From Elsinoe ampelina (Eukaryota), in contig ML992510.1 of NCBI GenBank assembly GCA_010093995.1, forward strand, positions 1,272,326 to 1,336,325: 64,000 nt of DNA. The letters run 5' to 3'. Position numbers and translations under genes: made by a program. The notes beneath the pieces were generated by a model. It saw only the letters and a program-made list of their open reading frames with translations. It ran no database searches and was not told the origin of the DNA. This document shows positions 1 through 60,365 of this stretch, one piece after another; positions within the stretch are counted from its first letter, which is position 1; every line of letters starts with the position of its first letter.

Positions 1-1401
1 GTTCTATAATTCTAGTAACCTTATATCTGTCCTTTATAGTATAATTATAGATATAATTAGTTACTCTAGAATCTAGTATTAATAAGTTAGAGATGTTACT
101 AGTAGCTAAAATAAATACTAAGTATAATCTAATAGTAATAGCTATATTAATTAATACTAGTAGAGTTAACCCCTTTTAATATTATACTTCCTTAGTAATA
201 GAAGCCTTAATTCTCTCTTTAAGAGTCTTATTATTTAGCCTTTATTTAATCTCCTTTATAGTCTACTAGTTTAGTGTCTATCCTTCTAGCCTTAAATGCT
301 TATTTAAGTAATAGTACTTAATCTACTTATACTAGCCTTAGTATATATATTTAGGCTCTCTAGAGAGACTAGGTTTCTTATAAAGAATATTCTTAGTAGC
401 TATAGAGAAGGCTATAGCTCCCTTACTAGCCTTTATAGTACTATATAGCTTATAGAGTTTATAAAACTATCTAAACTTAGTAATTAGTTTAGGTATAGTT
501 AGTAGAGTTAGTAAATCTAGATTAATAAGGTACTTATTAGTAAATACTAGTTTAGCCTTTAAGATAGAGAGTAAGAAGTCTCTCTATAGCTTTAAGCCTT
601 AAGCTTCTAGTAGATTATAGTTCCTAGCCTTATCTATAACCTCTTTCTATTACTAAAGCTAATAGTTTATATTTTATAAAGAAGAGCTAGATAGCTACTT
701 TCTCTAGAGTACTTTAACCTCGAGCTAAATAGCTATATTAGATAGAGTAAATCTATTCTTTAATACTCTAAGAATAGCCTATAAATAAGAATCCCCTTCT
801 AGTTAGATAATAGTAAGAACTTATAGTACAATTAATAACTAAATAAGGCTAGCTAAATTAGCTAAGGCCTTATACTATTTATTATATTATACTTATTTCT
901 CCTTATATATCTAGAAGAGTACTAAGAAGTTAATATTTACTACCTCTAGCCTTTAAGGCTTAGGGAGCCCTTCTAGTTTAATAGTCTTCTAGGGATTAAT
1001 AAAGTTCTATATCTTAGTGTTTAATGCTCTTATCTTAATAATATATAGCTAGCTAGCTTATTTAGCTAATGTAGCAAGAATAATAGGTGTTCTAGCTATT
1101 AAGGTGTTAGTATCTATAGTTATTTATTTCTTTATTAATACCTAAATCCTATAGTTATAGTTAAGGTAGTTCTTAATAGATTCTAATACTTAAAAAGCGA
1201 GATAATAGAGAATTAACTAATAAATAGAATAGGAAAGTAACTAAGTAATATACTTATATAGGGGTAGTTATACTAGGCTTATGACTATTAACTTATATAG
1301 GGAAGGAAAAAGGATTAATTACTACCTAATCTACTAAACTAAGGTAAATTATAACTATATAAATACTTAACCTAATAAACTAAGAGATAACTAAATTAAT
1401 A
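1..1401 (-). mobile_element. RIP-inactivated Ty1/Copia LTR retrotransposon, 5' part (putative 5' LTR, gag, protease); continues past window start
   Basis: Minus strand at ~40-85 reads ILDSRVTNYIYN (de-RIP: ILDSGATxHICN, Copia protease). At ~270-345 it reads KYIY*G*YK*IKYYYLNKHLRLEG*TLN (de-RIP: CIC...H.W..CYYLN..RPEGW.PN, fungal Copia gag knuckle). A GTCATAAGCC PBS-like sequence abuts TATTAAC at 1286. Putative LTR ~1286-1401; outer end uncertain. Confidence 0.75.
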
Positions 1402-1649
1402 GAACTTCTAAATAATAATAGATTAAGACAATAACTATCTAATTTAATTATAAACTAGTAGAGTAGTAGATAAGTATTTAGTTCTACTAGGAGATAAACT
1501 AAATTAGAGTTCTTCTTAGCGCTCTAGCTTATACCTTAGTTAATATAGAACAAGTCTTAGAAGCTCTTAGTTATATAGAGGCAAGGCTAAATTGTTAGCT
1601 AATTAGATATTAGACTTCTCTCTCTCTATTATCTAAGGCTTAATTTTTT

Positions 1650-3120
1650 TAGTCGTAGTATACTAAGATTCTACTACTAAATTGTACACCTTTATAACAC
1701 TACTAATTTTGCTTTAATTACTTTAATTTTTTTCCTAATAAACTTACTATAGCTAAATTACCTTATTCTAATTTATATATACTAACTCTAGAGGCTAATT
1801 AGAAGTATACTAAGGGGCATAAGTAGCCTACTCTAATCTACACTAGCTATTACGCCCTTAGAGTAGTACTACTACTACCTAGATACACTAAATTCTCTAT
1901 AAGCTAGATATTATATATAATAAAGATTCCTAAGTGTTCTATATAGTAGATACTTACTAGATTAGCTTAGAGGCCTAGATCTAAGCGGCCTAGAAGAACC
2001 TCTATTATTAATAACTATCTACTCTATTATATCTAGCGCTTTATTAATAGTAGCTTTAGTAACGCTAAAAAGACTTACTAGTAGCTAGTAGACTTATTCT
2101 ATCTAGATATTAACTCTTAGACACTACGTAGAGCTATATAAGGCTATAGTATCTTTAAGTTTAAGGCTAAATAGAAGAGCTAGCTAAAGGCTAAGAATAT
2201 AGTAGCTTATAAAGTATAGGCTAAAATCTACTACTATAAAGACTTAGACTTCTAGTTCTAGAAAAGTGTTAGATTTACTAATAAGTCTTATTTTTACTAT
2301 AACTTAAGAGCTACTACTATAATCTATTACTACTAAGGCTAGAGAAATAACCTAAATAAGATCTAGTTTAAAAAGAAGACTATAAAGATAATAGTATATA
2401 TCTAGGAGATAGTTAGCTATAGCTTTAAGTTAGAGCTTATATTCTACTCTAATTTACTACTACTAAAGACGATTAACAAGTAAAAGGCTATACTAGAGGC
2501 CGACCTTATCGATGTTAACTCTTAGCCTTTAGAGGCTATTCTTAAGATAGAGAAAGCTAAGTTATATCTATTAAATAACTTATAGCCTAGCTATAAGTAC
2601 TAGTATAAAGATAAGACAAGTTATAAACATAACTACTATAAGAAGTAACCCTTAGTACTTACTATCGGTAGTAACCTTAATTAGTTTACTTATCTTTATA
2701 GTATCTTTATTCTCTATATTAAGAAGTACTAGAATAATATATAGTTTAAGAAGAAAGCCTTTATACTAGAAGAAGACAATAATAGCGCTTATAGTACTCG
2801 ATTAACCTATAATCTAGTTAAGCTATATAAAGACTTACTACTAGGCTTCTAATATTATACTAATTGTACTAAATTACCTAATATAACTATTATTAAGAAC
2901 TACTAGTAGAGAGTTAAGTAGCGTATTAAGCGACGTATACTAATAACTAATAAAGAGCTAAAACGCTTCATTTAAGAAGAATAGAAAGATATACTATAGG
3001 ATTAGATAGATAAGCTAGTAGAGGAGATACTAGATAGAGTATACTAGCTATAGTAATATAATAGCAAAAGCACTAACTATTAAGCACTTACACCTTCAAT
3101 TCAATAGTATAGCTATTCAC
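1650..3120 (+). mobile_element. RIP-inactivated Tc1/mariner-superfamily DNA transposon (transposase relic)
   Basis: Plus strand reads F*KSVRFTNKSYF at ~2256 (FWKSVRFTDESHF), LEEDNNSAYS at ~2766 (LEEDNDSAHG) and LPNITIIKNY* at ~2874 (SPDMxIIENCW), i.e. a Tc1-type DDE triad. ORF ends near 3083. TIRs not resolved, so ends are approximate. Confidence 0.8.
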
Positions 3121-3787
3121 CACCTTAATTACAGCTTCATACAATAAGAATTGAGCGCAGCCTATGAAGATGTATTGTCTGTATACAAAAAGTGGTAAAG
3201 CCGGTACAGCTTGGCGGGCCCGTGCGCCAGGATTTCTGAAAGTGAGCCTTGGTCGCTCGCTCAACACCTCAGTTTAAACTTCCATAATTCCAGTACACTT
3301 CCTCTTCTTACGCCTCTTACTCGACACCAGATCATCACACTTGATACAGTAGCCCCCATCGACGCGCCACGTTTCTCGTCGTCGATAGCCTTGCGCTCAT
3401 CTTGTCCGCGGGTCTGACTCCATGATGCCCGCTCCACGCATGTCCCAGTTTGCCGAGCAAGTTTGAGGCACGACCTTCTCATCTTCGGTGTCACACCAGG
3501 AGTCATGGAAAACCAATACCTTTTCTGCGGTTAAAGAGTCCTTCACAGATCAACAGCGCCAGAAATGAATCCATGCGTGAGATCCCTTTGGGGCTGCTGC
3601 ACCACTGATAACGCCTATCTCTCGGTGGCGTGGACTGATTGGGTGGGACCCCAAACCACAAATGCCGAAGCCGGACGCAGGTGAGATATGTGTATCCCCT
3701 CCATGTCTACTTTACCTCGGGGTTTGCCCATGGGCAGAGAAGTATATTGTTCATTCTTCATCGTTCCCTTCGCAGTATTGTAACATC

Positions 3788-11776: not shown

Positions 11777-13636
11777 TCACATCCCCAGGACAATGTGCTT
11801 GAACTCGTACTTTCTCGACCATTCGATCCAGTCCACGTCCTCGGATCGTCCGCCTGCATTCTCGGCTGCCCGCTGCTCGATGATGGCCAGGTCGAGCAGG
11901 TGGTACACCCGTCTCACGGCCCCGGAAAGCCCTGCTTGGCTCATCTGCCGCAGGAGTCGGAGGGCTTCTTGCTTTTCGTCTCGGTTCTTGCTCACGAATC
12001 CGGCGATAAATAGGCCGGGAGCTAGGTGGTGGTTTTCCGTGTCGGCATTGGCGACGCTGGCCCGGGCGGCTTTGATGATCACGCTGCAGTGCGTGGCGTC
12101 TTCGTCCTCGTAGCGGTCTGATTCGAGCCGTTGATGGGGGTACATGCTGGAGTGGAGGTACAGAGACAGAACGGAGAATTGATAACGTGAAAAAGAGAAT
12201 GTGCCTTGGATGATGGCTGGCTGTTGTTCCAGTGAACATGGGTCTTCTGGGTCGTCGGCGAATCGTGGGCAATTCTTTTCCCACAGTTCTCGGTGGCGAG
12301 CAGACAAGTCATCGACTCTCGCTTGTCGCTCTGCTTGGTTGACTGTGCCGGCTTTCATGTCTCGCCGCATGTCTAGAGTGAGCTGGCTCTGCTCGGCGTA
12401 CATCTGAAAGATCAAAAGTGACAGCTTGTGTACTGCCAGAAAGTTCTGAAAAACAGTCGCGGATGGGAAAGTGTTCTCACCGCTGGGAGCGATCGGCCAT
12501 AGTGGCAATGTCTTGCCATTGTTTAAGAAGCTTCGCACATAGTGCCCCGCTTCTTCGTTCCCAGCCAATCCGGCTTGTGAATCCAACAAGAGAGTATACC
12601 ACGACAGGTAAGCTTTCAGACGACTGATGCTTGGTGACGACGGAGAGTGGACGAGACTGGCCAAGCCCTGCAAATGGAGTGCCCAGCATGTACGATCCTG
12701 CGGCCATCGTTGCGAAGCACAGCCAATGTCGTACATGAGCAGAATGAAGTGCAGGAAGAATGTCGCCTCCGGATCGTATGTCTCGAGATTCCGACATGCA
12801 GATACCGCTCGATCATAGTGCTGAAATGAACCTGCCAGAAGCTCTGGACGGTTGTTGAGCCCGCTGTTCAGCAAGGTGATAGCACAGATGGCGTGGTGGA
12901 GTGGAGGAAACCTCCGAGCTGTCGACAGAAGCAGATTCTCATTGTTCTCAATATTCAGTCGGAATCGTACGGCCATAGGCATGATCTTTTTGCATATGAC
13001 TGTGTCGAACAGGTACGGGTGTCTCTGGTTGTCGATGGTTCGCGTGCCATAGTCCATGATGTCGAAGCGTGGGGAATCCCATGGCTGCTCCTGCCGAGAT
13101 GGATTGTTCAGAGTAAGCGTCTGATCAGAGTCCTCATCGTCGCTCTCGTGCGCCAGACGAACGGGGAGCTCATTGAGCTCATGTCGAGAAGCTCGATTTG
13201 ACGTCGGGGTCGTGTTGACAATGTTTGTCCGAGAGGAAATGCTCGGCGCAGGTGCACGTGCCGTAAGGGCGAGCGAAGAGTCCTCTCGTCCGCCACTCGA
13301 CTCGGGAGATGAAGGGGATCCACCCGAGCTGTCAGTCTGATAGGAATCGGAGCCGGTGCTGGTGTAGGTCTGTAGCTCACTGGACCACTCTACGGCCGAG
13401 TCTGGCTGCTTGGAACTGGCCGCGGCTTTCTCGACCCTTTTATCGGTTACGATATACTGTCTCTCGACTGTATAGTTGGAGTTGACAAAGCGCCATTGTC
13501 GAGCCCAATCGCAAGCCTTGTTCAGTCGTGTACAAGGACCACACCTTGGCCGCTGTTCGTCACATTTGACCTTTCTCCTCCGACAGGTGCCACAACCGCT
13601 GAAGGACCTTGCGGTGGATCGAGATACATTGTCCAT
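11777..13636 (-). CDS. Zn(II)2Cys6 fungal transcription factor
   Basis: 619-aa ORF with CGTCRRRKVKCDEQRPRCGPCTRLNKAC at the N-terminus and a fungal-specific TF-type C-terminal region. Confidence 0.93.
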   Translation of the reverse strand: MDNVSRSTARSFSGCGTCRRRKVKCDEQRPRCGPCTRLNKACDWARQWRFVNSNYTVERQYIVTDKRVEKAAASSKQPDSAVEWSSELQTYTSTGSDSYQTDSSGGSPSSPESSGGREDSSLALTARAPAPSISSRTNIVNTTPTSNRASRHELNELPVRLAHESDDEDSDQTLTLNNPSRQEQPWDSPRFDIMDYGTRTIDNQRHPYLFDTVICKKIMPMAVRFRLNIENNENLLLSTARRFPPLHHAICAITLLNSGLNNRPELLAGSFQHYDRAVSACRNLETYDPEATFFLHFILLMYDIGCASQRWPQDRTCWALHLQGLASLVHSPSSPSISRLKAYLSWYTLLLDSQAGLAGNEEAGHYVRSFLNNGKTLPLWPIAPSGENTFPSATVFQNFLAVHKLSLLIFQMYAEQSQLTLDMRRDMKAGTVNQAERQARVDDLSARHRELWEKNCPRFADDPEDPCSLEQQPAIIQGTFSFSRYQFSVLSLYLHSSMYPHQRLESDRYEDEDATHCSVIIKAARASVANADTENHHLAPGLFIAGFVSKNRDEKQEALRLLRQMSQAGLSGAVRRVYHLLDLAIIEQRAAENAGGRSEDVDWIEWSRKYEFKHIVLGM

Positions 13637-38030: not shown

Positions 38031-39057
38031 GGCTGCGTAAAGACTGACACAAGTTGGAGGAAGGATGAGTAGCACGACGTATCTGAAAGCGAGACAGTCG
38101 GCCAAAGAAGCCCTGGGAGAACATACCAGGTTATATACGGAGACACAGCTCTTCTTGAGACATGTCACCGTGCCGAAACAAGCAGGTAATACTATCCTTG
38201 TTACTGATGCTCCTACTCGAACCTTCTAGAGTACGCCTCCGTCTCAAGTCTAGTATGATCACACACGGCGGCGGGCTCGCTCGCTATGGATGACATGGAG
38301 CATCACTCTAAGGGATGGAGATCGAAATGTGCTGAGACGACGCTAACCCTCCGGACGAACCCTAGCGTGCGAATCTTGTTTAAGCTTACCAAAGCTTGGC
38401 CCTATACTTAATTACGTTCTGTGACAAAGGGTATATTGTCCGATAGGACCTAGCGAATAAAAGGACAAACATCTCTATAGTGTGTAAGTAGATTATAGTA
38501 ATAGAGTTAGTGTTTTAGCTAGTAGATTAGGCTTATAAGCTCTCTTAGAGTAAGACTAAACCTTTACTAACTTACTAAGCTATAAGTAATATAACTATTT
38601 ATTACTACTATATTTAAAGGTATTAATAGTATTCTATAGCTACTAATAATTTGCCTAAGGTTTTAATATTTTAATTAGTAATCTACTACTAGTCTAGACT
38701 ATATTAGGAATTATATAAGAATAGAATATACTAGAGAATATAGCTAGTTAAATATATAGCTAGCTAGCCTAGACTAATAGTAATAGATAATTATTCTTAT
38801 TAGATCTAGTATAGAGTACTTACTAAGATAGTATTATATTTTACTTATAATTCTATAAGAATAAGAAGACTATATATATAGTTATATTATACTAAGTAGT
38901 ACTATAAAGGTAATAAGACTTACTTAAGTAACTTTACTATAATAGAGTTTATACTTATATACCTTATTATACCTAGCTTCTTATCTATAAATAGATATAT
39001 ATTACTTAGTATTATCTATTATAAGTCGCTAGTGTTATTTATATAGTATATATATAC

Positions 39058-39522
39058 TATTACGAACTATCTAAATATAGCCTATATTAGTAGTTTAAGC
39101 TAAGCTAAGAACGAGGTAGTTCTACTTCTATAGTAGTATAGTACTAAGGTAAGAGTTAGAGAAGATATATCTTATAGATAATAAAGTACAATTAGATAGT
39201 ATTACAAAGGCTAGCCTTAGTAATACTAGTATTTACTATCTAGATAAGGTTAACTATAGTACTTATATAAGGTAAGAACTATTCCTATATATATATATTC
39301 TTTACTATATACTTTATATACTCTATATACTTCGTAGTAGAGCTACTAGAGAAGATAGAGTATATATCTACTAGTAATTCTATACGCTCTATAGTTTCTA
39401 AGGTAGAGCTACTAGAGAAGATAGAGAACTAGGTAAATATTAGGCTAAGTTATATAATAACCTTAGTAGTTTAATTAGTTCTAATATCTCTATACTCTAG
39501 CTTATTCTACTAGTTTATAATA
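39058..39522 (-). repeat. 3' LTR of element A
   Basis: Direct repeat of 45621-46085, differing mostly by transitions. Confidence 0.92.
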
Positions 39523-39596
39523 TTACTCTTCTCCTTTAATTAAGTTATTCTAATAAGTAAGTATTCTTCTTTATCTTTATATACTATATACTAAAT

Positions 39597-40150
39597 ATGC
39601 CTTCTAGTTATTAAAGGTATAGTAAATCTAGTATATCTATACGAAAGAATCTCTTAGAGTTTATTAAACTATTTAGAACTAATATACTATAGGCTTATTC
39701 TTATTACAAATTAAAGAGGCTAGACTATAAGGTCTATATTTAGTTAAGTATCTATAGCTAGTATATTATAAGTAACTACTTAAGTTATAATATTTAAGTA
39801 ATAAAATCGAAATAGTAGTATCTCTAGTCTAAGTATATTTATTTATAAAAGGAATTAGTTACGGCTAAGGCTACTAGAAAGAAAGCTAAAGAAGCTTATA
39901 AAAAGGTAAAAGAGGCTTATTAAAGAGCTATAAGTAATAAGCTTTACCTACGCGAAGTAATATAGAAACTAGAGAATAAGGTAGAGAAAGTAATTTCCTT
40001 AGAGGAAACTTGTATTTAAGTTCTAGAGTAAGAGGAAATACTATCGTTAGTAAATCTCGTCCTACTATAGAATTAGTAATTATTTATACCTAACTCCGAT
40101 TAGGGTTCCTTATTTAGCAATAATTAAGGTACTTCTATTAGCTAAGTAGT
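39597..40150 (+). pseudogene. RIPed antisense ORF of element A: Zn2Cys6-like motif plus coiled coil
   Basis: Intact ATG at 39597. TAT/TAC codons spaced x2-x6-x8-x2-x7 at 39696-39788, followed by a K/E/A-rich helical segment. 3' end approximate. Confidence 0.65.
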
Positions 40151-43100
40151 CTTCCTTAGGTATTTTTATTTTTATTTAGTATTAGTAGTATCTAGCCTAC
40201 CTAGTTAGTTTACTTAGAATAGGTTTTTAGTTTAGTAATCTAAGATTACTTACGAGGTAAGATATTTCTCTAGTTTCTATATTACCTTACTATACTAATG
40301 TTCTTTCTAGTAGATAAGATAGTAACGTTTTTCCCTTATAAATTTATAATATAAAACTCTTTTAATCTTATATTATAGCTCCTATATTTCTTTATCTAGT
40401 TCGATAGGTCTAAGTACTACGTCCTATAGTACTTTCTCTAATAGTAATATATAAAAGACTAAGTAGATCCTTATATATCTAGGTAGTTCTAGTTTATATA
40501 CGTTTTTGTTTTTCTTTTCTAGGATCTTAAAGAGTCCTAGTTTAGTATAGTTAAGTTTCTTACTTAGTTATTTTATTTTAATGTTTTTACTAAGGAGATA
40601 AACCTTCTCTCTCTCCTATAGAATTAGTTCTATAATTCTCTTCTAGTTAGTAAACTCTACTATTCTTTATAATATAAATACTATATCTTAGTATAGCTAG
40701 TTATATAACTTCTTAATATTAGCTACTAGTCTATTTATATCCTTAGATATTAGCTTAATTCTAAGTATATTATAGTATAGATCTAAGTATATTCTATAGT
40801 TTATATAGAATAGTAAAACTCTATTTGCTAACTTTCTATTATTAATAGTAAGCTCTATAAGTAGTAATAGTGTTACTTATAAGTCTTACTTATAGTTTAA
40901 ATAGTAGCGTAGGTACTACTCTAATACTTAATTTGCCTATTTAGTTTATCTATTCGTTTATAAGTAAAAGAAGGTTAATAGCTTATATTTAACTCCTAGT
41001 AGATCTATAAATAATTACTAGAATTATAATATAAATAGCTTATCTCTATTAGTTATTAGGTCTCGTAGTACTCTATATTATAAAATAATTATTTAAAGAA
41101 AGGTAAAGACTATATTCTTAGTAGTTACTATTGTCTTATATAGTATAAAATAGTAATACTTCGTAAATCTATCTACTAGAACTAGAATACTATTATACTT
41201 TATACTTATAAGGGGTTCTTCTAATAGTAATAGAGGTCCTATAAAGTCTATCGTAACTAATTACTATAGTTTATCTAGTAGTAGTAAAGGTTATAGTAGG
41301 CTATATAGTTTATGTCGAGAGTATTTAGACTTATAGTATATATTATATATAGCAATATACGTCTTAATATTGTTTTAAAGTCCTTTCTAGAGGTAGTTTT
41401 ATATAATAAGTTTAATAGTCTTATTAATTCTACTATATTCTATAGTTAGGTTATTATAGTATATTTAAATAATTTCTTTTTTCTATTCTTATATAAGCTT
41501 CTAGGTAAGGCTATATAACTACTCTACCTTTAGGTACTTATAGACTAAAGCGCTATTCTACTACTTTAGTATAGAGGCCTCTATTATTATTATATTTTTT
41601 AAGTAATCTAGCTAGTAGCTAAGAGTGTCTACTTCGCTATTCTCTAATTCCTTAATATAGTAGATCTAGAAGTTATAGCTTATAAGTGTTTCTAACTATT
41701 AAACCTATTATCTATTAAGAACCTTAGTTATTATCTAATATAGAAGGTTCTTATAGTCGGTATAGACTTATATAGGTAAGGTTATCTCTTCTAGGTATAC
41801 TTTTTATTTATAGAATACTTTTATAATTATAAGTAATTCCTTATCGTATATATCGTAGTTAAGTTTAGATCTAGTTATTTTTCGTAAGTAGTATATAATT
41901 AAGTAGTGTTATTCTTCTATATTCTTCTATACTAGATATACTTCTATTATAAAGTCTAAGGTATTTATTTCTAGTAGTGCTTATTAGTTTAGGTTAAAGA
42001 GTACTAGGATAGGTACTATTATAAGTCTAAGCTTTAGCTTCTTAAAGGCCTACTTATATCTCTTATTAAAGACAAAGCTAGTTTTCTTTTTCGTAAGGTT
42101 AAATATTAGTATAGCTACCTTAGAGAATTCTTTAATAAACTTATAGTAGTAGTTAAAGAACCCTAGTAGCGCTTAAATCTCCTTAACTATTATAGGTTCT
42201 AGCTAGTTATTTACTAACTTAATCTTTCTTAGATTAGGTCTAATACTATTAGTAGATATAATATAGCTTAGAAATTGTATCTTATACTTATAGAACTTAT
42301 ACTTAGAGAGTTTTACTAGTAGGTCTTTCTCTTTTAGTTTCTATAGTACTTTATAAATATGTTTTATATATTTATTATATATCTTTAAGAAAATAATAAT
42401 ATTATCTAAATATACTAAGATAAAGTTATTAAGGTATTCTTATAGAGTATTATTAATTAACTCTTAGAAGGTTATAGGAGCGTTAGTTAACCTAAAGGGT
42501 ATAATAAGGTACTTATATAGACTTTATTATATTCTAAAAGCTATTTTCTACTTCTTACTCTCCTTTATTTATACTTAATAATAAGCGTCTCTAATGTTAA
42601 TTATAGTAAACTATTTAGCTCTAAGTAGTTAGTCTTAAAGTTTGTTAATTCTTAGTAGAGAATAGTAATTCTTCCTAGTAAGTATATTAAGTTTCTAGTA
42701 ATTAATATATATTTATAATGTTTTATTCTTTTTTAGTATAAAAAGTACTTTATATATAATAGATAATTTTAATAGTTATATAAATTCTTTAAGTAAGTAC
42801 TTATTAATGTAGTTCTTAAGGACATTCTTCTCTTATTTTAATAGTAGTATAAGACCTTAATAGTGTATTAGGGATTTACTCTCTTCGAAAGGTATTTTAT
42901 AATTCTATAGTTTATATTAGAGTAAAGCTATAATACTTTCTCTTTCTTTAAATAAGTCCTTAAAGTCTTTATATTCTAGCGGAAGTACTTAATTACTTAC
43001 GCTAGTAATAGCTTTAACTATTAGTTATATCTATACTATTCTTATAGTTAGTATCTATAGAGCTAATTATACTTTCTATATTCTATAATTACACTTAGGG

Positions 43101-45620
43101 AATTTAAGTATTTCTTTAATCTAGTCTATATCTAGATTATATTATTAAAGCTAGTCTATACTAAGTACTATATTATACTATATATTAACTATATTAATTA
43201 ATTATTTTTCTATATATATTCTAATTCTAATTATAACGTTTTATAGTTCCTAAGTAACTTTTCTATTCTTTCCTATAGGAGTTCTATCTACTATAGTAAG
43301 TAGGTAAGGTAACTCCTTCTAATATTAATAAGGTTTAAGCTAATTAGTAACTATTATAGAGACGTAGCTATAGTTAGCCCTCGAATCTATTATTACTCTT
43401 ACCTTATTTCTCTATATCTAGACTTCTAGTATAAAGTAATTTAATATATAGATCTTTATTATATTAAGACTTTAGCTAGTATTATTGTCTTACCTTATTA
43501 AGTAATAACTAGCTAGTTTTTTATTATTATAGCGTCTTAGATAAGTAGTTAATCCCTTCCCGTATATATCTATTATTAATATTATACTTATTAGGCTAGT
43601 TATATCTTATTATTATTTAATATAGCAAGGTAGACTTCTAGTGCTTAAGTTCCTTAATAACTATAAAGTCTAATAATTCTCTATTAGTTATACTAAGTAG
43701 TGTCGTATACTTATATTAGTATAACTATTCTTTCTAGGTATAGCTAGGTATTAGTATTAAAGACAAGAATAAGTTATATAGATTTATCTTGTTATATTCT
43801 ATTCTAGTAGTAGATATATATTATTATATAATTCCTCTATATCCTTATAAGGTATACTTTAAGTCGTTTACCTAGTAGTAGTACGTTATTATTATTATTA
43901 TTATTAGATAAGTTCTTATCTATGTTATTATATTATAGTTATTTAGTATATTCTTTATTATATTTCTCTTTATCGCTACTACCTCTAGTATAGTTATAGT
44001 TAGTAAAGCTATACTAAGTATATTTTCTTACTTAGCTATAGGGAATAGTACTACCTATTTTAATTACTAAGAAGTCTATAGTATATTTAAGACTAATAGT
44101 ATCTTCTCTAAGTATATTATATAAGTAGATAGTATAGTACTATTTATAATTTAGATTTATAAATTTCTAGAGCGATATATAATATACCTTTCCTTATAGT
44201 TTACTATAAGAGCTAAAGGTAAGACTACTATATTATTATATAGTACTTATATTCTAATACTTTATCTTAATAATTATATATTAGTAATTATTACTAACTA
44301 CCTTCTAAGGTTAGTTAATATTACTACTAATTATAGAGAGCTCTTCTAGGTTAGGTTTCTAGTCTAGCTATTTTATTAGTTATCTATACTTAGATAGCTT
44401 ATATAGAAACTAACTAGATCCTTACTTGTCTAATAAGTAAATATAATAAGAGTTATTATAATATACTATCTATAATAGTGTTGTGTATTAGCTTTATTAT
44501 TCGCTATTAGTTATAGAAATATTAAGCGTAATATCCGGAGAGAATTCTATTACCTCTTAAGTTATTATAGACTTCTTTTATATTTCCTTATCTACGCTAA
44601 AGATTATTAAGTCTTCTATAGTAGTATTAGCCTTTTTCTCTACTAGCTCGGTAACTATTATATATAATCTATTAGCTAGCGCCTCTTATTAGTAGTCTCT
44701 AGCCTAATACCTAAGTCTTTTATACTTAAAATATAAATTGTCTTATTTATACTTCTCTTTCTCTTTTCTACTAAGAAACTTTCCTTTATAGCTATAGTCT
44801 TATACTTATAAGAGGTAGCCTTTATATATAGTATTAAGTTCTATAGAGTCTCTATAGTTTTAAGAGAAATATATATATCTAGTATTTACCTTATATCCTC
44901 TATAACGTTCTATATATCGTTTATAAAGTTAGTTATTAATAGTAATTATAGTGTCTACTAGTTCCTAAAGGCTATTAGACAGCTTAGATATTATTTAGTC
45001 TTTAACTAAGTTACTTAGTCCTTAATAGAATACTAAGTGTTTAGTACTATTATTCTAGTCTAGATATATTATAAGTTATTAGAACTAGAAATAGTACTAG
45101 GCTATAGACCTACGTTGTTATAGTTATTAAATCTTTATTATAGTAACATATTTCTTATTAGATATGTTAAAGACTTACTTAATCTTTACCTAGAAGATAC
45201 TAAAGCTCTTAAAGATAGCCTTTATATCTAGGCCTAGTTATCTATCTAGGTAGCTACTTATATAAGACTTAAACTACCTAAAGGTAGCGCCTTTAAGGTA
45301 TATTCTAGTATAGAGGACCTTTACTACGTTATTAGTATACTTATCTCTCTCTAGAGCGAAGAAAGCTTTAAGTTAAATAAGAAAGCGCCTTAAGTAAGTA
45401 TAGTCCCTATAGAAGAGTTTTACTTCTAACTTAGGCTTACTCTATTCTTTCTCTATACTAAGAGACTTTCTATATTTACTCGAGGTTAAACTAGTAGTAG
45501 ATATATTATTAATAGTAAGCTTTTCTAGCTTACTAGTAATTAAAGATACTAATAGTAACTTAGAGTAAGAGTTACTTATTAATCTTATAGCGTGCTATAC
45601 TATAGTAAGGATAGTTAAAA

Positions 45621-46085
45621 TATTATAAACTATCTAAATATAGCTTATATTAGTAGTTTAAGCTAAGCTAAGAATAAGGTAGTTCTACTTCTATAGTAGT
45701 ATAGTACTAAGGTAAGAGTTAGAGAAGGTATATCTTATAGATAATAAAGTACAATTAGATAGTATTACAAAGGCTAGCCTTAGTAATACTAGTATTTACT
45801 ATCTAGACAAGGTTAACTATAGTACTTATATAAGGTAAAGACTATTTCTATATATATATATTCTTTACTATATACTCTATATACTTTATATACTTCGTAG
45901 TAGAGCTACTAGAGAAGATAAAGTATATATCTACTAGTAATCCTATATACTCTATAGTTTCTAGAGTAGAGCTACTAGAGAAGATAAAGAACTAGGTAAA
46001 TATTAGACTAAGTTATATAATAACCTTAGTAGTTTAATTAGTCCTAACGTCTCTACGCTCTAGCTTATCCTACTAGTTTATAATA
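45621..46085 (-). repeat. 5' LTR of element A
   Basis: Direct repeat of 39058-39522. Confidence 0.92.
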
Positions 46086-49000
46086 TATATCTTATACTAC
46101 TCCTTTATAGTTTAGAAAATACTATTTACCTCTTCTTTTTTTACTAGATACTTCTTTCTAAAGTACTAAATTATTTAGTATACCTTAGCTACTTATTAGT
46201 AAGAAGCTTAATTATATTTATTTATTATTATATCTAAATATATTATTATAGGCTAAGATATAGATTATCTAATTTATAGCTATTATTATAAAGAAATATT
46301 AAAATATATAGATAGCTTTAAGAATAACTAATATAGTAATAAATATATATAATATAATAGACTAGTAGCTTTAATATAATAATAGTAATAAGGCTTAAGT
46401 ATTTCTACTTAATACTAGAAAGTAACTTATACTATAATATTAATAATTTTATCTAAGAACTATTTAATTTATAGTTAAAGTTCTATTAAGTATTACTTAT
46501 ATTTAGTTATATATATTAAAGACTATTTTAGCTTCTATAGAGATTTAAGAATATAGAGTTATATATAGTATATATATTTATAGTCTATAGTTGTTTTTAT
46601 AGTATAATATTATATTTATCTAGAATTAGTAACCTCTAGACACTATTTATCTTAGAATAAAGAGTAGATTCTAATAGTTTTACTAGAGGTAGAGTTAGAA
46701 AAGTACTTTAGATTCTAATAGGAATATTAACTTTTATTTCTTAGCCTAGGAGTTATTTTTTCTCTAGAATTTTTAGTTAGATTTAGTATCTACTCTAATA
46801 CTTTTATAATTCTTAGAATAAACTATATCTATTTAGTATTACTTCTAGGATTAAAGCTAGAATTTTTAAGAGTTACTTTAAAATTCTTTTAAAGTTTCTA
46901 GAAAATATAAAGTATAATAGCTTAGTAGCTTTACTTAGGTATATTAGAGTAGCTAGGAATATTAAAACACCTCTATAAATCTAGTATTACCTAGGTAAGC
47001 TAGTAGGTTTATAAGAAAACTATTTCTAAAAGACTTAACTTTTCTAAAAGTTAGTAAATATCTTAATTCTAGAAATAATAAATAACTCTATAGTATTTAG
47101 AATAACTATTTAGATACTTAGATCTTTAGGAAAGGCTAGGCACTTAGAATCTTAAATTAATAAGATAAATAGCTAGAGTCTTTAGTAGAAATACCTAAAT
47201 ATACTTCTTATTTTTATCTTTTTAACTATCTCTTAGTATTCTATAACTTTCTTTCTTTATTCTTTTAACTATCTCTTAGTATTCTATAACTTTCTTTCTT
47301 TATCTAGTCTTCTTAGAATAGCCTTAGAAAAATTTAATAGCTTCTTATAATACTTAATTAGAAGTTAGTAAGTAGATTATAAAAAGGAAAGTTAGAAAGT
47401 AATTTCTTATTATTTTAGTTATTATAGAGTATAGAGCTACTATTATAGATTTATTAACCTAAAGGTTTAGGCTATTATTTCTATTATATTACTTATTATT
47501 ATATTACCTTAGGTAATAATAAGCTTCTATAAGGAATTATTAGAAAAGATTTCTAGATTAATACTTAGTACTTAAGCTCTAAGTTAGTATATCTTAACTC
47601 TTTAGAAATTATATATCTAAACCTTTTATATACTATATTTTATATACTTATATACTTTATTATTATTATATTACTCTTTATTTTATATACTTAGCTACCT
47701 AGTATAACTTATAGATTATATATATCTTTTTATTTTACTTTTAGTTTTCTTTTTCTTTTTCTTATAAATACTACTTTAGTAAGTATACTTTATTAGAGCT
47801 AGGTCCTTATCTAGTTCTTTTAAGAGAGTTAAAGTAGCTAGAGATATTACTATAGAGATTAGATAGCCTTTAATTAGCTCTAGAAAGAACTAGCTTTATA
47901 ACTTATCTATAGCCTTTATAGCCTTTATAGCTTTTATAGAGTACTTTACTAGTAAGGTATAAATTTATCTAGAGTTTATTTACTTTAATAAGCTTAGTAG
48001 CCTAGAAAGAGATATATAAAGCTTTAGCTAGCCTATAGACTTTATCTCTACTACTTTAGCTCTACTAAGAGACTTTAGAAAAGAATCTTTAGTAAATATA
48101 AGCTTTCCTAAGAATCTTAACTAATTATAACTTCTAGTACTAGCTCTTTAGCCTCTTTTTAATTTTGTCTTATCTTTCTAAATAACTCCTAAGCCTAGTA
48201 CTTCTAGTAACTATTATAGCTTCTAAAGCTTAGTACTTTAGAACTTCTATTAATACTCTAAATACTACTAGTAATTAGATTATTAATCTAAATAATCTAT
48301 ATAAGTATTAAGTTTTTAATCTCTTTTAAACTTACTAATAATTTTAGACCTTACTTAGGTTTCTATAACTTTAGCCTTTACTTAGTAGGTCTAAGCTAAT
48401 CTTTAAAGACTTAATAAAGCCTAGCGTAAGACTCTAGACTCTTAAGTTAAACTCTTAATTAACTAGGACCTTTAGTATTTTAGTAAGCTCGACTCTAAGT
48501 TCTAGCTTAATTAGCCTATTATCCTAAGAACTTCTAGAACTACTATAAATCTCTCTAGATCTAATATTAACTACTTATCTTTCTTACTTATCTATAGTAC
48601 TAATAGGTATACTATTTACTTAGCTAGTTAGAAATATACTTCCTATACCTAGAGTAATAGTAAATATACTTCCTATATTACTATAAAGACTCTTAATAGC
48701 GCTATTCTCCTAAGAGGCTTCTATACTAACTATAGCTTCTAGAATAATTACTATAGCTATAGCTTATCTAGTAAGTATTTTTAACTTTTCTAAACGACTC
48801 TAACTAATATAAATTCTAAACTACTAGAGAGCTTTTAGATACTTATCTACTAACTAGACTCTTAAGTGTCTTAGGCCTTTTAGATTTATAAAGTATCTTA
48901 GAGGTCTCTTAACTAATAATAATACTACTAGAGAATTTCTAATTTAGGTTCCTAAGAATTCTAATTTCTCTAAGAGTTAAGACTCTCTAGAAAACTTTAT

Positions 49001-50437
49001 AGAGCTTCTAAATAATATTAAGACTTAGCTAGTAACTATAAAGGCTAGAGGTTATCTAGTAGAGAAGAAAGAGCTTTTAGATCTTAAAAGATCTAAGCTA
49101 GTCTATAATAAGTCCTAGGATTAATTAGAATTATATATAGCTTTAAGGCAATTTTAAAAGATATTAGAATTAAGTAGCTAGCTCTTTTAGTTTTTATAGA
49201 TATAAAGTAAGTAGGTAGCTTCTTAAGTTTTTATAGTTTTCCTAAGCGTTCTAAGGTTTATAATAGACTAGTAAGCTTCTAGGTTTTATAGCCTTAGACT
49301 TATCTTAGAAAATTTAACTAATAGTTAAGAAAATCTCTCTAGTATCTCTATAATTTATATTAATTCTAATAGCCTTCTAATCTATTTAAGGGTTCTAACC
49401 TTAGAATCTACCTATACTCTATATACTTTAAAGCTTAGTCTTAGTCTACTAAACTTCTAAACTCTATTAACTATTATAGGTTTCTTAAATTTTTTAGTAG
49501 AGTTCTAGAACTTAAAAATATCTTAGATAAGAACTACTAATATATATATAAGGTTACTAAAGTTCTAGATCTTCTAGTTTTATTTAGTTAGCTCTTATCT
49601 ACTATAGCTCTCTAGTAGGAAATATAAGTCTCTTCTTAACTATTCTAAGAGTATTTAGTAGAGAGAACTCTATTTAAGTACTTCTAGTAGTTTAAGGTAA
49701 TTATCTATATAGATTATAGATTTACTATAGTTCTAGATTAAGTTATCTTTTACCTAAAGAAGTATTACTCTTCCCTAGTAAAGGATAAATAATAAACTAT
49801 TATTAGTATTATAGGAGAGCTATAGGATTTAGTAAAGGAGAAATTAAATATTTAGTATCTCTATTCTATACCTAAAGCTATTCTAGAACTACCTATTTAA
49901 GGTCTAGAGTTTAAGTATATTTATAGAGATAATTATAAAGAATAGTATAACTATATTACTTAGTATATTAAAGTAATAAAATAGTATTATAGCTAAAAGT
50001 ATAGCTAGAAGAGTAATAAGTCTAAGGGAAAAAGTAAAGCTTAGAGAGTAAAGCTAAGAAGTAATAAGATCTAGATTAGTAATATCTAGAGTTAGAAATT
50101 CTTCTAGGATAAGGCTTAGTAGAAGTCTTTCTAGGTAGAGTATTCTAATATAAGAGAAAAGTAAAATAGAACTAATAGTAGAATTAATATATAGTTAAGA
50201 ATCTATTAGAACTCTCTTAGAAAGAGAAATAACTCTAAGATTATCTAGAGTCTAAGTAATAGATATAAGGTTAATCTTTAGCTAGAAATAACTAGCTAGC
50301 CTTAGTACCTTTTAGGATTTAAGTAGGTCTAGGTTCTATAGGCTATTACTTTACCTAGCTAGGATTTACTCTATTAGCTAAGTTAAACTCTAAGAGCTAG
50401 AATATCTTATAGTACTAGAATTAAGTATTAAGCTTAC

Positions 50438-50860
50438 TATTACGAACTGTCTAAACTAAGGTTATATAAGTAAGTCTTAGGTCGAGCTAAGAACGATATA
50501 TTCTACTTCTATAGTAGTATAGTACTAAGGTAAGAGTCGAAGAAGATATATCTTATAGATAATAAAGTACAATTAGATAGTATTATAAAGGCTAGCCTTA
50601 GTAATACTAGTGTTTACTATCTAGACGAGGTTAACTATAGTACTTATAGAAGGTAAGGACTACTTCCTATATACTATATACTTTTAGGTATATAGGTTTA
50701 GTAGTATTAGAGCACTAGTAGGGAGACTACTATCCTATAAACACTATAAACTACTTTCTATTTAGGATAGATTACGTAACTTGTCTATTCCTATCTTAGC
50801 GTAGGGCTAATTAGTTATTTATAACTTGTTCTATAGGTTCTCTAAGGGACCTTTATAATA
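50438..50860 (-). repeat. 3' LTR of element B
   Basis: Direct repeat of 56889-57311, followed by a pyrimidine run (PPT on the minus strand). Confidence 0.92.
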
Positions 50861-50955
50861 CTATTTCTCTTCTAGCTAGAGTTATCTTTAACATTTATAA
50901 CTACGCTACTCCCTAGGTTATTTTTCTTTCTTTTCTTTTTAGGCTATAGCTAACT

Positions 50956-51510
50956 ATAGATAGCTTTCGTGTTAATAAGAAGAACAAGAGCTAGAAACCT
51001 TCTTAATTCTAGAAGTAGTATTATATCGATATAGCTAATACTCTATCGACACTTAAGAACATTATAATAGTTATATATACGAACTGTCTAGAGTTTAGTA
51101 CAGTGTGTTATTTTAATCGTAAGCGGTTAGTAAAGTATACCGAATATTAGAGAAATAATTAGAAGTATAATAGCACTTTTTCGTTAGAGGAATATTACTA
51201 AGTAAGTAAGTAAAAGAAGGTAGTTAAGGTAAAGAGCCTTTAAAAACAAAAGGAGATAACTTAGTTAAGGAGGAATCTTATTATAGTATAGTAGGCTCTA
51301 GCTAAAGCTAAAGCGAAGAACTTATCTCTATAGAAGAATATAGTAAAGTTAGATAAGAAGTTAAATCGGATACTTCGCTAGGAAATAGAGGTGTTAGGCG
51401 TATTTAATACTATACCTCCTAATAAGGAGATTTTCTTAGGTAACTCTAACTTTATTCTAGAGGGGATACTAATAGTCTAAATAGTTAATTAGCCTACGAT
51501 AGGTTTTTAG
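50956..51510 (+). pseudogene. RIPed antisense ORF of element B: Zn2Cys6-like motif plus coiled coil
   Basis: 51076-51168 reads Y-TN-C-LEFSTV-C-YFNRKRLVK-Y-TE-Y-*RNN*K-Y. Two Cys survive as TGT and four are TAT. Ends approximate. Confidence 0.7.
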
Positions 51511-56888: not shown

Positions 56889-57311
56889 TATTACGAACTA
56901 TCTAAACTAAGGTTATATAAGTAAGTCTTAAGTCGAGCTAAGAACGATATGTTTTACTTCTATAGTAGTATAGTACTAAGGTAAGAGTTAGAGAAGGTAT
57001 ATCTTATAGATAATAAAGTATAATTAGATAGTATTATAAAGGCTAGCCTTAGTAATACTAGCGTTTACTATCTAGACAAGGTTAACTATAGTACTTATAG
57101 AAGATAAGGACTACTTCCTATATACCGTATACTCTTAGGTATATAGGTTTAGTAGTGTTAGAGCACTAGTAGGGAGACTACTATCCTATAAACACTATAA
57201 ACTACTTCCTATTTAGGATAGATTATATAACTTGTCTGTTCCTATCTTAGCGTAGGGCTAATTAGTTATTCGTAACCTATTCTGTAGGTCCTCTAAGAGA
57301 CCTTTATAATA
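56889..57311 (-). repeat. 5' LTR of element B
   Basis: Direct repeat of 50438-50860. Confidence 0.92.
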
Positions 57312-58494
57312 TATAGGTATAGCTATTATAGTAGTTAGATAGGAGATAGTTTATGCACTCTCCGTTAAAAAGTCTAGGGAAGGTAATATACTAATCTATA
57401 TAGCTGTTATTACGACTATAGCGGTCGTAAGGGATAGCATTAACTCTCCTACTAATAGTAGTATATACCTATAACGCTAGGATATAATTACAATTTAAGA
57501 GAGTTATAGTAATAGTACTACCTAAAGAAGTTCTTAATATTAGTAGATAACTATACTAATTATTAAGAGCGCTATTTATAAATAACAAGTTCTATCCGGA
57601 AAAGAGCGCCTATAATCGGTTACTTCCTCCGTAGGCGTAGATAAAGGTAAAGATATTAATAAGAGATTATATATTTATATTACTTATATAAAGAGTAGCG
57701 TAGACTATGCCTATTATTAGTGTTACTATAACATCTCCCGGTTAGAAACACTTACTACTACTATTAATAAGATAGATAAGATAGTTAAGTATAGTCTAGG
57801 TCTATTAGGTTATTAGGTTACTAGGAGGGTTCTAAACTTAGGTATTGCCCCTTCTAAAGATAGCTACTAGCGTTATTATTAGTATTAACATAATAAGATT
57901 AACAATCAAAATAAAGGTAAGTATAAGTAGTAGAAGCGTACGTAAGTAAAAGAAAGAGAGAGAAATAGAAGGCAAGGACATAAGAGATAGATTACTTGCT
58001 CTTTATTTATGTTTTAGGCAATACTATAGACTTACTAGGTAAGTAAACAAAGAAAAGCACTATAGTAGTTAGATATAGTATATATATGTATAAAGGACTT
58101 AATATTTCTACTGCTATAGATAGTTACATAAAGGGTAGAAAGATAGGTTAAGAAGTACATTATACCTAGTAGTAGGAGAAGAAATTATACTTCTCTCGGG
58201 GAAACTCTTATTTTTTTTAATTATCGTTTATGTCTAATATATCTTATAGAATGTAACAAAAATAATATTAATAAATAGCCTTTTTACTGTAGAATTAGAG
58301 ATAGAAGAAAAATATTTCTGTTCTTAAGCTATTTAGAAGTCTTCTCTACTCTATATATAGACCTAATTAATATACGCCTTAAGGATTCTTCCCCTTTAAC
58401 TTTATTAATTAATTACGTAATGAATTAGATTACTATTAAGTCTAATTTTATTTAGCTTATTGTCTAAGGTGTTTATAAGTATTAGAGGAAGTTT

Positions 58495-60365
58495 TAATCT
58501 AAAAGGTGCCTTAGAATACGAATAGTTCTCCCTAACCTTAACTTTAGCTAAATAGGTGCCTCCTTAGCCCTTAGAGGTTCTTTAACAGCTATAGGCTCTA
58601 TATATACCTACTGCTTCTTTAGCCTGCCTCTTAGTCTTCTATTCTAAGCCTTTAGCTCTAACTTAGCCTATCTTTAAGCCTTTTTAGCTGCCCTCTCTAT
58701 CTCTCTCTAAGTCTTTTTTAAAGCTTTAGCTACCTTACAAGTAGCTTAAGTAATAGCTCTATCCTTACGCCTCTACTAAGCTTCCTACTCCTTTCTAACC
58801 TTCTTAAGAGCCCTCTCTTAAGCTCTCTACTCTCTATTTTATATCTCTTACTTCTTCTCTTACTCCCTTCTATCTTAAAGCTTAAGGGCTACTCTTACCT
58901 TACTAGAGCTAAATAGAATTACTCTAGAGCCTTTATTAGCTCTAAACTGCTTAATAAGCTTCTTACTACGCTTTCTCTTTTTCTTCTTATGCCTAAGAGC
59001 CTCTATTGCCTACTACTTACTAAGCCTTTTAAGGGTAGCCTCTACCTTACTCTTCTAGAGGTTATTACTAAGCCTCTTAATAACTTTCTTAGTCTTCCTA
59101 TTAATAGTCTTATTAATAATTACTCTTAGCTTTCTTATACTAGAAGGAGAGTCCTAGTAAGTAGAAGAACTACTTAATCCTCCCCTACTTAGCCCTCTTA
59201 GAGTTAGTTCTCTCTAACTTCTTAGCCTAAGCTTATTAAGCACTAAAGGGAGGTTAAAGGGGAATAGGCTAGTCTTACTCTAGCTAGAAGCTATATTCTT
59301 GTCTATAAAGGCTTTATACTAAGCTAGATAGAAGCACTTAAAGAAATCTCTCTTAGTTATCCTAGTCTAGCCTTCTAAGAGCCTAGTCTACTATTTAAGA
59401 AGCTAGCTATAATAGGTAGCTAGAGGAGTAAAGTAACTAACATCTAGAGGCTATAGCCTATATATAGAGTAAGGATGATATATAGCTATAAGGATCTTGT
59501 ACTATTAAGCCTATTTAAGGAACTTTAGAGTTACATAAGATCTATAACTATCGATAAATAAGAGCCTCTAATCTCTCCTTACTTTGTCCTAAGTGTACTT
59601 CTTAAACAAGGCTTCTAGCTACTTAAAACTAATCTCATTAGAAGTCTAGCTGCTTAGTAAAGAGGTAAACTAAGCTTAGTGCTTATTGCTGTTAAAGTCC
59701 TAGACCTATAAGTCTTAGATAGAACTAGAGGTGCTATTATAGATTAAGAGAGAGAGTAAAGCTATTCTATCTACGTAGATAGTAGCTATAACTATAATCT
59801 ACTTCCTTAATCTATCTTAGCTAGCTCTAAGAAGCTTCTTAGATGCTTTAAGGTCCTTTAGAAAGACTCGCTTAGCTTTAGTAATCCTTCTAAGGAGAAA
59901 GCCCTTCTTATCTATATTATAGATGTTCTTAGGCAGAATCTAGTACTTATCTATTTTCTTGCTAATAATGGAGAAGTATTGCTTAAAGGAAGCTACAGAA
60001 TCAGCCTAATGCCTTTCTAGATCTAGGTTGTTAAGATAGCGAGAGTCTAGTTTATCCTTATACCTATTAACAAACCTTAAATACTAGTTGTAACTAGGAG
60101 CTCTACTACTAAGCTAAGTAGCGATCTTAGCTACAATTGCTAGTGTAGGTGGTAGATATCGATTATAGAGCTGTCTAATATGTTGCAAAAGCTGCTGCTC
60201 TTGCTACTTAGTCAGGAATCGCTTGTCTTTAACTGCCTGACCTCTAGTAGTAGTAATTCCCTTCTATCTCCTGCTAAGTGTTAAGCGATTAACGCCATGA
60301 TTTCTGGCAGTCACAGCGATATAAGGAGACTCTGTAGAGTTTAATTCAGCAATTGCTGCTTCCAT
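58495..60365 (-). mobile_element. RIPed pogo/Fot1-like DNA transposon (HTH plus DDE_1 transposase relic)
   Basis: ATG at 60365: MEAAIAELNSTESPYIAVTARNHGVNRLTLSRR*KG. Also IYNIDKKGF (YNMDEKGF) at ~59910, RLLFIDSYRSY (DGHxSH) at ~59550 and L*PLDVSYF (LQPLDV) at ~59445. TIRs not found. Confidence 0.88.

Follow-up and report, generated by a model that had tools for sequence, protein, structure and literature searches.

Introduction

Extra open reading frames (ORFs) that lie antisense between pol and the 3' long terminal repeat (LTR), e.g. brtn of the Botrytis retrotransposon Boty, are the closest known kind of gene to the locus described here, a decayed ORF in a Ty3/Gypsy retrotransposon (element A) of the fungus Elsinoe ampelina. 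The 64,000 nucleotides (nt) that were analysed (GenBank assembly GCA_010093995.1, contig ML992510.1, positions 1,272,326 to 1,336,325 of the forward strand) are referred to as the window, and the locus occupies positions 39597 to ~40185 on its plus strand. The brtn gene of Boty is reportedly the subject of Zhao 2011 (Virology 417:248). It is present in BcGypsy1 and Boty-like elements according to PMC8365987 and PMC4227169. Antisense ORFs in this position (aORF-3R) occur in most copies of their elements and are conserved like other element proteins, and according to PMC7264820 no clear similarity of their products to other proteins has been described and their function is unknown. The same review proposes roles as accessory proteins, considers antisense transcription a possible regulator in itself, and states that transduced genes occur in one or few copies (PMC7264820). 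Plant examples of aORF-3R are Grande gene23, RIRE2, Retand, and PvRetro13. No zinc-cluster-like antisense ORF was described for a fungal retrotransposon in the full-text literature searched, whose coverage extended neither to Zhao 2011 nor to bioRxiv/PDF supplements.

The window locus is very probably an antisense accessory gene of a Ty3/Gypsy chromovirus lineage that was inactivated by repeat-induced point mutation (RIP), and its identity as a defunct copy of a genuine antisense gene is highly likely. Like aORF-3R and brtn, the ORF is situated between pol and the 3' LTR, runs antisense, is found family-wide, and is conserved like pol. It differs in its Dothideomycete host (Elsinoe) and in a product that bears a six-Cys signature with the spacing of Zn2Cys6 domains, whereas PMC7264820 knows of no clear protein similarity for any such ORF.

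An intact relative of the window ORF

The antisense ORF opens with an ATG at 39597-39599, 74 nt past the end of the 3' LTR (39523), and runs to ~40185, with pol homology starting at 40193; it is on the plus strand and thus opposite to the pol domains on the minus strand. Six Tyr codons start at 39696, 39705, 39726, 39753, 39762, and 39786, giving a spacing of x2-x6-x8-x2-x7; all of them are TAT or TAC, and no Cys codon is left in the motif. In these respects (the intact ATG near the 3' LTR, the plus-strand frame and its translation, the Tyr codons at 39696-39788 with their spacing, and the loss of every Cys codon) the locus is just as an initial annotation, made from the letters alone, had described it. 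There are 19 stops in the 185 codons of the frame, and together with the lost Cys codons they imply that the window copy makes no protein. Neither the 3' region of element A nor that of a second element in the window (element B, see below) has a second copy anywhere in the window.

A full HMMER (phmmer) search with the X-read ORF, i.e. the translation with stop codons read as X, against 1,835,955,588 representative proteins returned a single match, a protein of 199 amino acids (aa) that we call P0121 (E 4.7e-7, 46.2 bits), whose residues 16-157 align with 11-152 of the query. P0121 is encoded on L001, a metagenome contig of 6,093 bp that has not undergone RIP (GC 38-55%), and it contains exactly six Cys, arranged as C-x2-C-x6-C-x8-C-x2-C-x7-C (residues 39-69). 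A gapless BLASTP alignment over 109 aa with 32 identities (29%) places the six window Tyr on these six Cys, about the same level of identity as that between the pol proteins of element A and L001 (31%). At codon level, C39, C42, C49, C58, C61, and C69, all TGT or TGC in L001, each stand opposite a TAT or TAC of the window (39696..39788), which bears out the claim of the initial annotation that the Tyr codons were formerly Cys. Its further claim of an antisense ORF adjoining the 3' LTR gains an intact counterpart, since P0121 occupies the same place and orientation in L001. The peptide that the annotation had reconstructed by reversing transitions shares 25 of 43 residues with P0121 in a count by eye, including CKVHIRSG.CG.C.

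The nucleotide differences have the direction expected of RIP: in a block of 327 nt compared with L001, 153 positions are identical, 89 differ in the RIP direction (C-to-T, G-to-A), 12 are transitions of the reverse kind, and 73 are transversions. Because RIP makes only transitions, sequences were reduced to purines and pyrimidines (R/Y) for comparison. In this space, the local score between the locus and L001 was 155, while shuffled sequence gave 39.3 +/- 5.5 (z 21), and R/Y identity was 0.78 in register and 0.50-0.55 in shifted registers. A gapless in-frame block of 390 nt connects 39657-40046 to L001 3109-3498, and the alignment continues across a few short indels (near 40047, 40103-40106, and 40148) until the L001 stop (3631-3633) falls on 40183-40185.

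Support at the protein level came from RIP-aware profiles, in which each codon is scored against the codons from which RIP could have derived it. The profile of P0121 residues 35-75 scored 53.1 at the locus and 22.9 at the next best of 42,996 positions. Adjacent blocks of P0121 were all recovered collinear and in frame, with 44.4 for residues 76-124 (null maximum 21.3), 17.7 for residues 125-160 (null maximum 14.8), and a marginal 11.6 for residues 1-34 (12 of 19,396 null positions as high). The remnant of residues 1-160 thus extends over 39597..40059 in one frame and without a frameshift, with the long charged helix (residues 76-160), defined by block mapping and a predicted structure, at 39807..40059. 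The counterpart of the acidic C-terminal tail and of the stop, at 40060..40185, is unrecognisable as protein and traced by R/Y alignment only; this part probably overlaps the 3' end of pol on the opposite strand. Codon replacements between L001 and element A in pol served as a RIP control, where His had become Tyr at 18 of 30, Trp a stop at 6 of 8, and Cys a Tyr at 3 of 9 positions. In the antisense gene, RIP converted all six Cys codons to Tyr codons and left behind the 19 stops in 185 codons.

Selection on the protein frame

Transversions between the locus and L001 accumulated preferentially at third positions of the plus-strand frame, both in the first comparison (17/18/38 at codon positions 1/2/3, p 0.003) and over 130 codons of the ORF (21/22/43, p 0.005). 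The same holds for a control of 180 codons of reverse transcriptase (RT) and RNase H (31/31/61, p 0.0007), and R/Y identity was also alike, with 0.777-0.779 in the ORF and 0.772 in the RT/RNase H control. The third-position excess and the similar R/Y identity therefore speak for a constraint at the protein level comparable to that on pol. Judged from these substitutions, purifying selection has acted on the protein frame of the antisense ORF, which evolved at approximately the same rate as RT/RNase H. Codon periodicity in R/Y space was uninformative, even for control windows in pol.

These data bear on the idea that the functional product is the antisense RNA itself, which as a double-stranded RNA or a source of small RNAs would regulate the element while the frame on L001 is incidental. 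Antisense transcription has been raised as a possible regulator for such ORFs (PMC7264820). However, a plus-frame excess of third-position transversions like that of RT/RNase H, an open frame of 199 codons, and six Cys kept between two elements that, after RIP, share only 31% identity in pol all argue for a protein, and we regard a purely RNA-based function as improbable.

Tyr spacing and the possibility of a chance motif

The spacing by itself is weak evidence. A relaxed pattern, [CY]x2[CY]x6[CY]x5-12[CY]x2[CY]x6-8[CY], scanned in six frames, was found at 9 start positions representing ~7 loci in 38500-60000 (21.5 kb) and nowhere in 1-3000; of the other loci, three fall within the pol region of element A itself, on the plus strand. 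Tyr accounts for 9.5% of codons in RIPed frames. In Markov simulations, the pattern arose in 1.6-1.8% of cases per 669-nt strand, or in 0.8% when the model was trained on this region alone. Both LTRs of element A also match the six-position Y/C pattern by chance on the minus strand (39327 and 45890) and came out on top of a RIP-aware scan for zinc clusters, which illustrates the ease with which RIPed DNA mimics cysteine motifs.

A chance spacing of Tyr codons in non-coding, RIP-saturated 3' untranslated DNA would agree with the frequency of the pattern and of Tyr, as well as with the unalignable 3' regions of elements A and B and an empty word-indexed protein search, in which not one of the 43 candidates scored for the X-read ORF attained E <= 1. 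When the X-read frames of both 3' regions were compared with Pfam, the only match was a coiled-coil-like one to NET2A, below the cut-off. Such an origin is refuted by the collinear in-frame match to an intact gene in the same place of a related element, with its z of 21 in R/Y space, and we give it next to no weight. It is the homology to P0121 that raises the window locus above chance.

A family-wide gene and the question of capture

The bin of 39614-40227, which contains the antisense ORF, has a summed word depth of ~68,000, equal to that of the pol bins and ~270-fold the ~250 of unique contigs, the measure being a sum of depth over sequencing data and not a copy number. As the depth of the bin equals that of pol, the ORF belongs to the whole high-copy family. 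Across family A, depth ranged from ~65,000 to 98,000 (two runs, one sample) compared to ~250 for unique contigs, hence the family is a major repeat of the genome. In the two sequencing runs, A>G and T>C variants were seen at 510-550 places and those of the reverse direction at ~200; none of the 40 variant places listed, out of 1,716, was within 39696-39788. On some contigs, A-like sequence is joined to B-like sequence, an indication of recombinant or chimeric copies.

Family-wide presence is also relevant for a different origin, namely the recent capture (transduction) of a fragment of a host zinc-cluster gene by one element family. A source would have been at hand, given the host Zn2Cys6 factor at 11777-13636 (minus strand). 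Against such a capture stand the occurrence of the ORF at full family depth and in the same place of a distant relative (L001), the lack of detectable similarity to Zn_clus domains of the host type, and the one or few copies in which transduced genes occur (PMC7264820), so that we hold it to be very improbable.

The predicted product and its relation to Zn2Cys6 domains

An intact product, as modelled on P0121, would have ~199 aa and consist of a basic six-Cys module, a long charged helix, and an acidic tail. Residues 35-75 of P0121 are basic (8 K+R, 2 D+E) and residues 125-199 strongly acidic (2 K+R, 19 D+E). AlphaFold2 (AF2), run on the single sequence, gave a model with a mean predicted local distance difference test (pLDDT) score of 68, in which two short helices (40-45 and 59-63), each directly following a C-x2-C, precede a helix at 75-158 (pLDDT 86-98). 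Zn2Cys6 domains follow the rule C-x2-C-x6-C-x5-12-C-x2-C-x6-8-C, and the cysteine spacing of P0121 fits it exactly. Foldseek with the full-length model found nothing at E <= 0.001; the four best rows, weak as they are (E 0.8-4.4), are all Zn2Cys6 domains (Pho7 6o19, Pho7 6e33, GAL4 1aw6, PUT3 1ajy). VIA-align picked up the long helix only, and a sequence search of the PDB gave coiled-coil noise only (E >= 0.09). In the ESM Atlas, P0121 resembles clusters of hypothetical proteins from Ascomycota, one of 161 aa with 140 members (score 0.95, template modelling (TM) score 0.77) and others of 192 aa with 122 members (0.91) and of 214 aa with 62 members (0.90), while its weaker structural neighbours are mostly clusters bearing Zn_clus (TM 0.23-0.32). 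Residues 30-80 alone reached scores of <= 0.81 in the Atlas, to be taken as leads only.

In comparison with Zn(II)2Cys6 proteins (PF00172; GAL4, PUT3, Pho7), P0121 thus shares the cysteine spacing, predicted short helices after Cys1 and Cys4, and a basic module followed by a helix, and its look-alikes in the Atlas are all from Ascomycota. It differs in having no Pfam match, few basic residues between Cys2 and Cys3, and no heptad coiled coil, as well as in its length of only 199 aa without the middle domain of fungal transcription factors and in its location inside a retrotransposon.

A number of results weigh against a gene for a zinc-cluster regulator. Pfam PF00172 (Zn_clus) did not match P0121 even at E up to 10. 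Our own Zn_clus profile, built from those 111 of 120 fungal proteins that show the Cys pattern and biased towards one subfamily, scored P0121 at -1.3 bits, with an hhalign probability of 2.7%; that P0121 belongs to the host-type Zn2Cys6 family is thus not established. The Cys2-Cys3 loop of P0121 reads QQRGLE, with one basic residue in six, and the consensus of this subfamily-biased profile reads RARKVK. A RIP-aware scan with the same profile, which had little power because of the subfamily bias, put the locus at rank 301 among 48,992 positions when decoding by TpA context and at rank 102 when any transition was allowed. An AF2 model of the domain alone was of poor quality (pLDDT 58), and no Zn2Cys6 structure matched it. 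The long helix has no single heptad register, its 7 of 23 hydrophobic a/d positions being reached by 3,817 of 5,000 shuffles, and a coiled-coil dimer is therefore not supported. Moreover, the last 39 residues of P0121 (161-199) are unrecognisable in the window (their block scores 7.3, a value reached at 84 of 19,396 null positions), and P0121 is the only intact relative that was recovered. Because of the negative Pfam, profile, loop, domain-model, and heptad results, the P0121 module is classed by its spacing and not as a member of the Zn2Cys6 family.

The same features lend themselves to another function for a real and conserved antisense gene, in which the six-Cys module is no Zn2Cys6 DNA-binding domain and the protein serves retrotransposition, be it by binding RNA or complementary DNA, by nuclear import of the pre-integration complex, or by counteracting silencing. 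The missing Pfam match and the insignificant profile comparison, a Cys2-Cys3 loop poor in basic residues, and a helix that without heptads looks more like a charged single helix would all suit such a protein, as would the accessory roles that have been proposed for ORFs of this kind, for which no clear similarity to other proteins has been described (PMC7264820). On the other hand, the spacing is exactly that of Zn2Cys6, the four best, if weak, Foldseek rows all belong to this class, and a basic module, a helix, and an acidic tail form the layout of a small activator. We consider a role in retrotransposition a serious candidate, albeit one with less than an even claim. The P0121-type protein as a DNA-binding regulator appears to us plausible, if on balance still somewhat doubtful.

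Genomic setting and structure of the elements

GC-rich (~52% GC) and AT-rich (20-34% GC) blocks alternate in the window, the latter at 1-3000 and ~38500-60000. In 38500-60000, TA/AT is 1.86 and (CA+TG)/(AC+GT) 0.12, compared to 0.54 and 1.31 in a GC-rich block, and the AT-rich blocks display the directional C-to-T and G-to-A changes, the excess of TpA, and the depletion of CpA/TpG that characterize RIP. Pfam on 18 X-read frames of the other RIPed AT-rich segments (1-3100, 46087-50437, and 57312-60300) recognised no family. The sole true six-Cys zinc-cluster pattern of the window is that of the host factor at 11777-13636 (minus strand), a UGA3-like Zn2Cys6 transcription factor of 619 aa with PF00172, whose closest named relative is found in Sphaceloma murrayae (82% over residues 1-60), another match being from Elsinoe batatas.

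Element A is bounded by LTRs at 39045..39523 and 45608..46086 (both minus strand), which pair in a self-BLAST with 93.5% identity over 479 nt. A polypurine tract, AAAGGAGAAGAG in minus-strand reading, lies at 39526..39537, directly internal to the first of these, and a RIP-degraded gag-pol extends over 40193..45607 (minus strand). The X-read minus frame yields RVT_1, RT_RNaseH_2, RT_RNaseH, and SH3_Tf2-1 in Pfam, all in one frame; element A therefore reads on the minus strand, with 39045-39523 as its 3' LTR and 45608-46086 as its 5' LTR. A paired set of LTRs and the pol order RT - RNase H - integrase mark it as a Ty3/Gypsy chromovirus, and a chromodomain-like stretch in pol was seen by eye only. 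After RIP, its pol is still 31% identical to that of L001 over 695 aa (E 9e-116).

L001 represents one element, assembled in circular permutation with its LTRs collapsed into one. It has the same arrangement of antisense ORF and pol as element A. Its minus strand bears a pol ORF of 833 aa (5950-3449), which comprises RT, RNase H, integrase, and a chromodomain-like end, as well as gag (2592-865), which includes a CCHC knuckle, and, at 835-2, the protease together with the start of RT. The P0121 ORF (3034-3633) is on the plus strand, antisense to pol. A purine tract at ~2990-3005 lies beside the LTR edge (~2989), and the ATG of P0121 is located ~45 nt from both. The pol frame of L001 remains open for ~83 codons past the chromodomain-like end, and at 3449-3633 it shares the final 185 nt of the antisense ORF on the opposite strand. 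The LTR of element A, taken alone, did not match L001 significantly in R/Y space (36 vs 34.7 +/- 5.2), and a scan of viral contigs gave no relative.

The second element of the window, element B, is delimited by LTRs at 50438-50860 and 56889-57311. From 40193 of element A onward, the two elements share 78% identity at the nucleotide level, whereas 39524-40192 of A and 50861-51472 of B are unalignable. The non-homologous block as a whole (39312-40192 vs 50695-51472) includes the pol stop, the purine tract, and the inner part of the LTR, with 86-88% identity in the remaining LTR and 78% in gag-pol. It would seem that a module of accessory gene and U3 was exchanged, or that it changes much more rapidly than other parts of the element. 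The word depth of the 3' region of B is ~530.

The initial annotation had seen the shared architecture of A and B as an argument against chance and had rated A as the weaker case of the two. Neither view was upheld: even in R/Y space the 3' regions are not homologous (51 vs 42.9 +/- 6.3), so that the two ORFs give no support to each other, and it is element A that is proven, via P0121, while the 3' region of B has no demonstrable relation to P0121/L001 (BLASTP E 5.2; R/Y z 0.3). The 3' region of B (50863-51472, plus strand) does contain a six-position Y/C motif (51076-51168), in which two Cys codons survive, and behind it a stretch rich in K and E. This motif aligns with the P0121 module in the expected register and ranked 70 of 42,996 in the RIP-aware comparison, whose null includes A; against a null from B and downstream DNA it scored 18.6, with a maximum of 18.5 among 16,956 positions. 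The RIP-aware profile of the helix block of P0121 found nothing in element B. The motif may belong to a very divergent family member or be a chance match. A word of 13-14 nt, tacgaactgtcta, at the outer end of the 3' LTR of B (50441-50454) recurs at 51075-51088, where it overlaps the first surviving Cys codon of the motif, and may be a remnant of an LTR end or a cis element.

Possible role and significance

With a start 45-75 nt from the LTR edge, transcription of the antisense gene would therefore begin in or at the 3' LTR and read inward. The intact product would most likely be a small zinc-binding nuclear regulator that acts on the LTR of its own element or on host promoters, functionally similar to antisense regulators of retroviruses. 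HBZ of human T-cell leukaemia virus type 1 (HTLV-1), a bZIP protein, is encoded by such a retroviral antisense gene. Retroviral antisense genes are expressed from the 3' LTR (PMC10186651). The P0121-type gene resembles the HBZ type in its small product with a nucleic-acid-binding look, its antisense position at the 3' end, and its presumed need for a promoter in the 3' LTR, and differs from it in lacking any sequence relation and in belonging to a fungal retrotransposon. That a fungal Ty3/Gypsy lineage carries a regulator of the zinc-cluster type, antisense and transcribed from the 3' LTR, which binds LTR or host promoters, is, taken with all its parts, a tentative and rather unlikely scenario.

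The window copy is a fossil without present function. Nevertheless, it adds a second fungal lineage with an antisense ORF between pol and the 3' LTR to that of Botrytis Boty, and P0121 on L001 supplies an intact sequence for such an antisense gene. It further demonstrates that R/Y comparison and RIP-aware codon scoring can retrieve the coding past of DNA saturated by RIP. For ORFs of this kind, the combination of a six-Cys module spaced as in Zn2Cys6 domains with a helix and an acidic tail offers a concrete and testable biochemical hypothesis. If the regulator scenario is true, the clusters of hypothetical Ascomycota proteins in the Atlas (62-140 members) would constitute the P0121 family, and the long-unexplained antisense ORFs of LTR retrotransposons would gain a function. 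Each insertion would then spread a regulator gene together with its binding sites, making these elements the fungal counterpart of retroviral antisense regulators.

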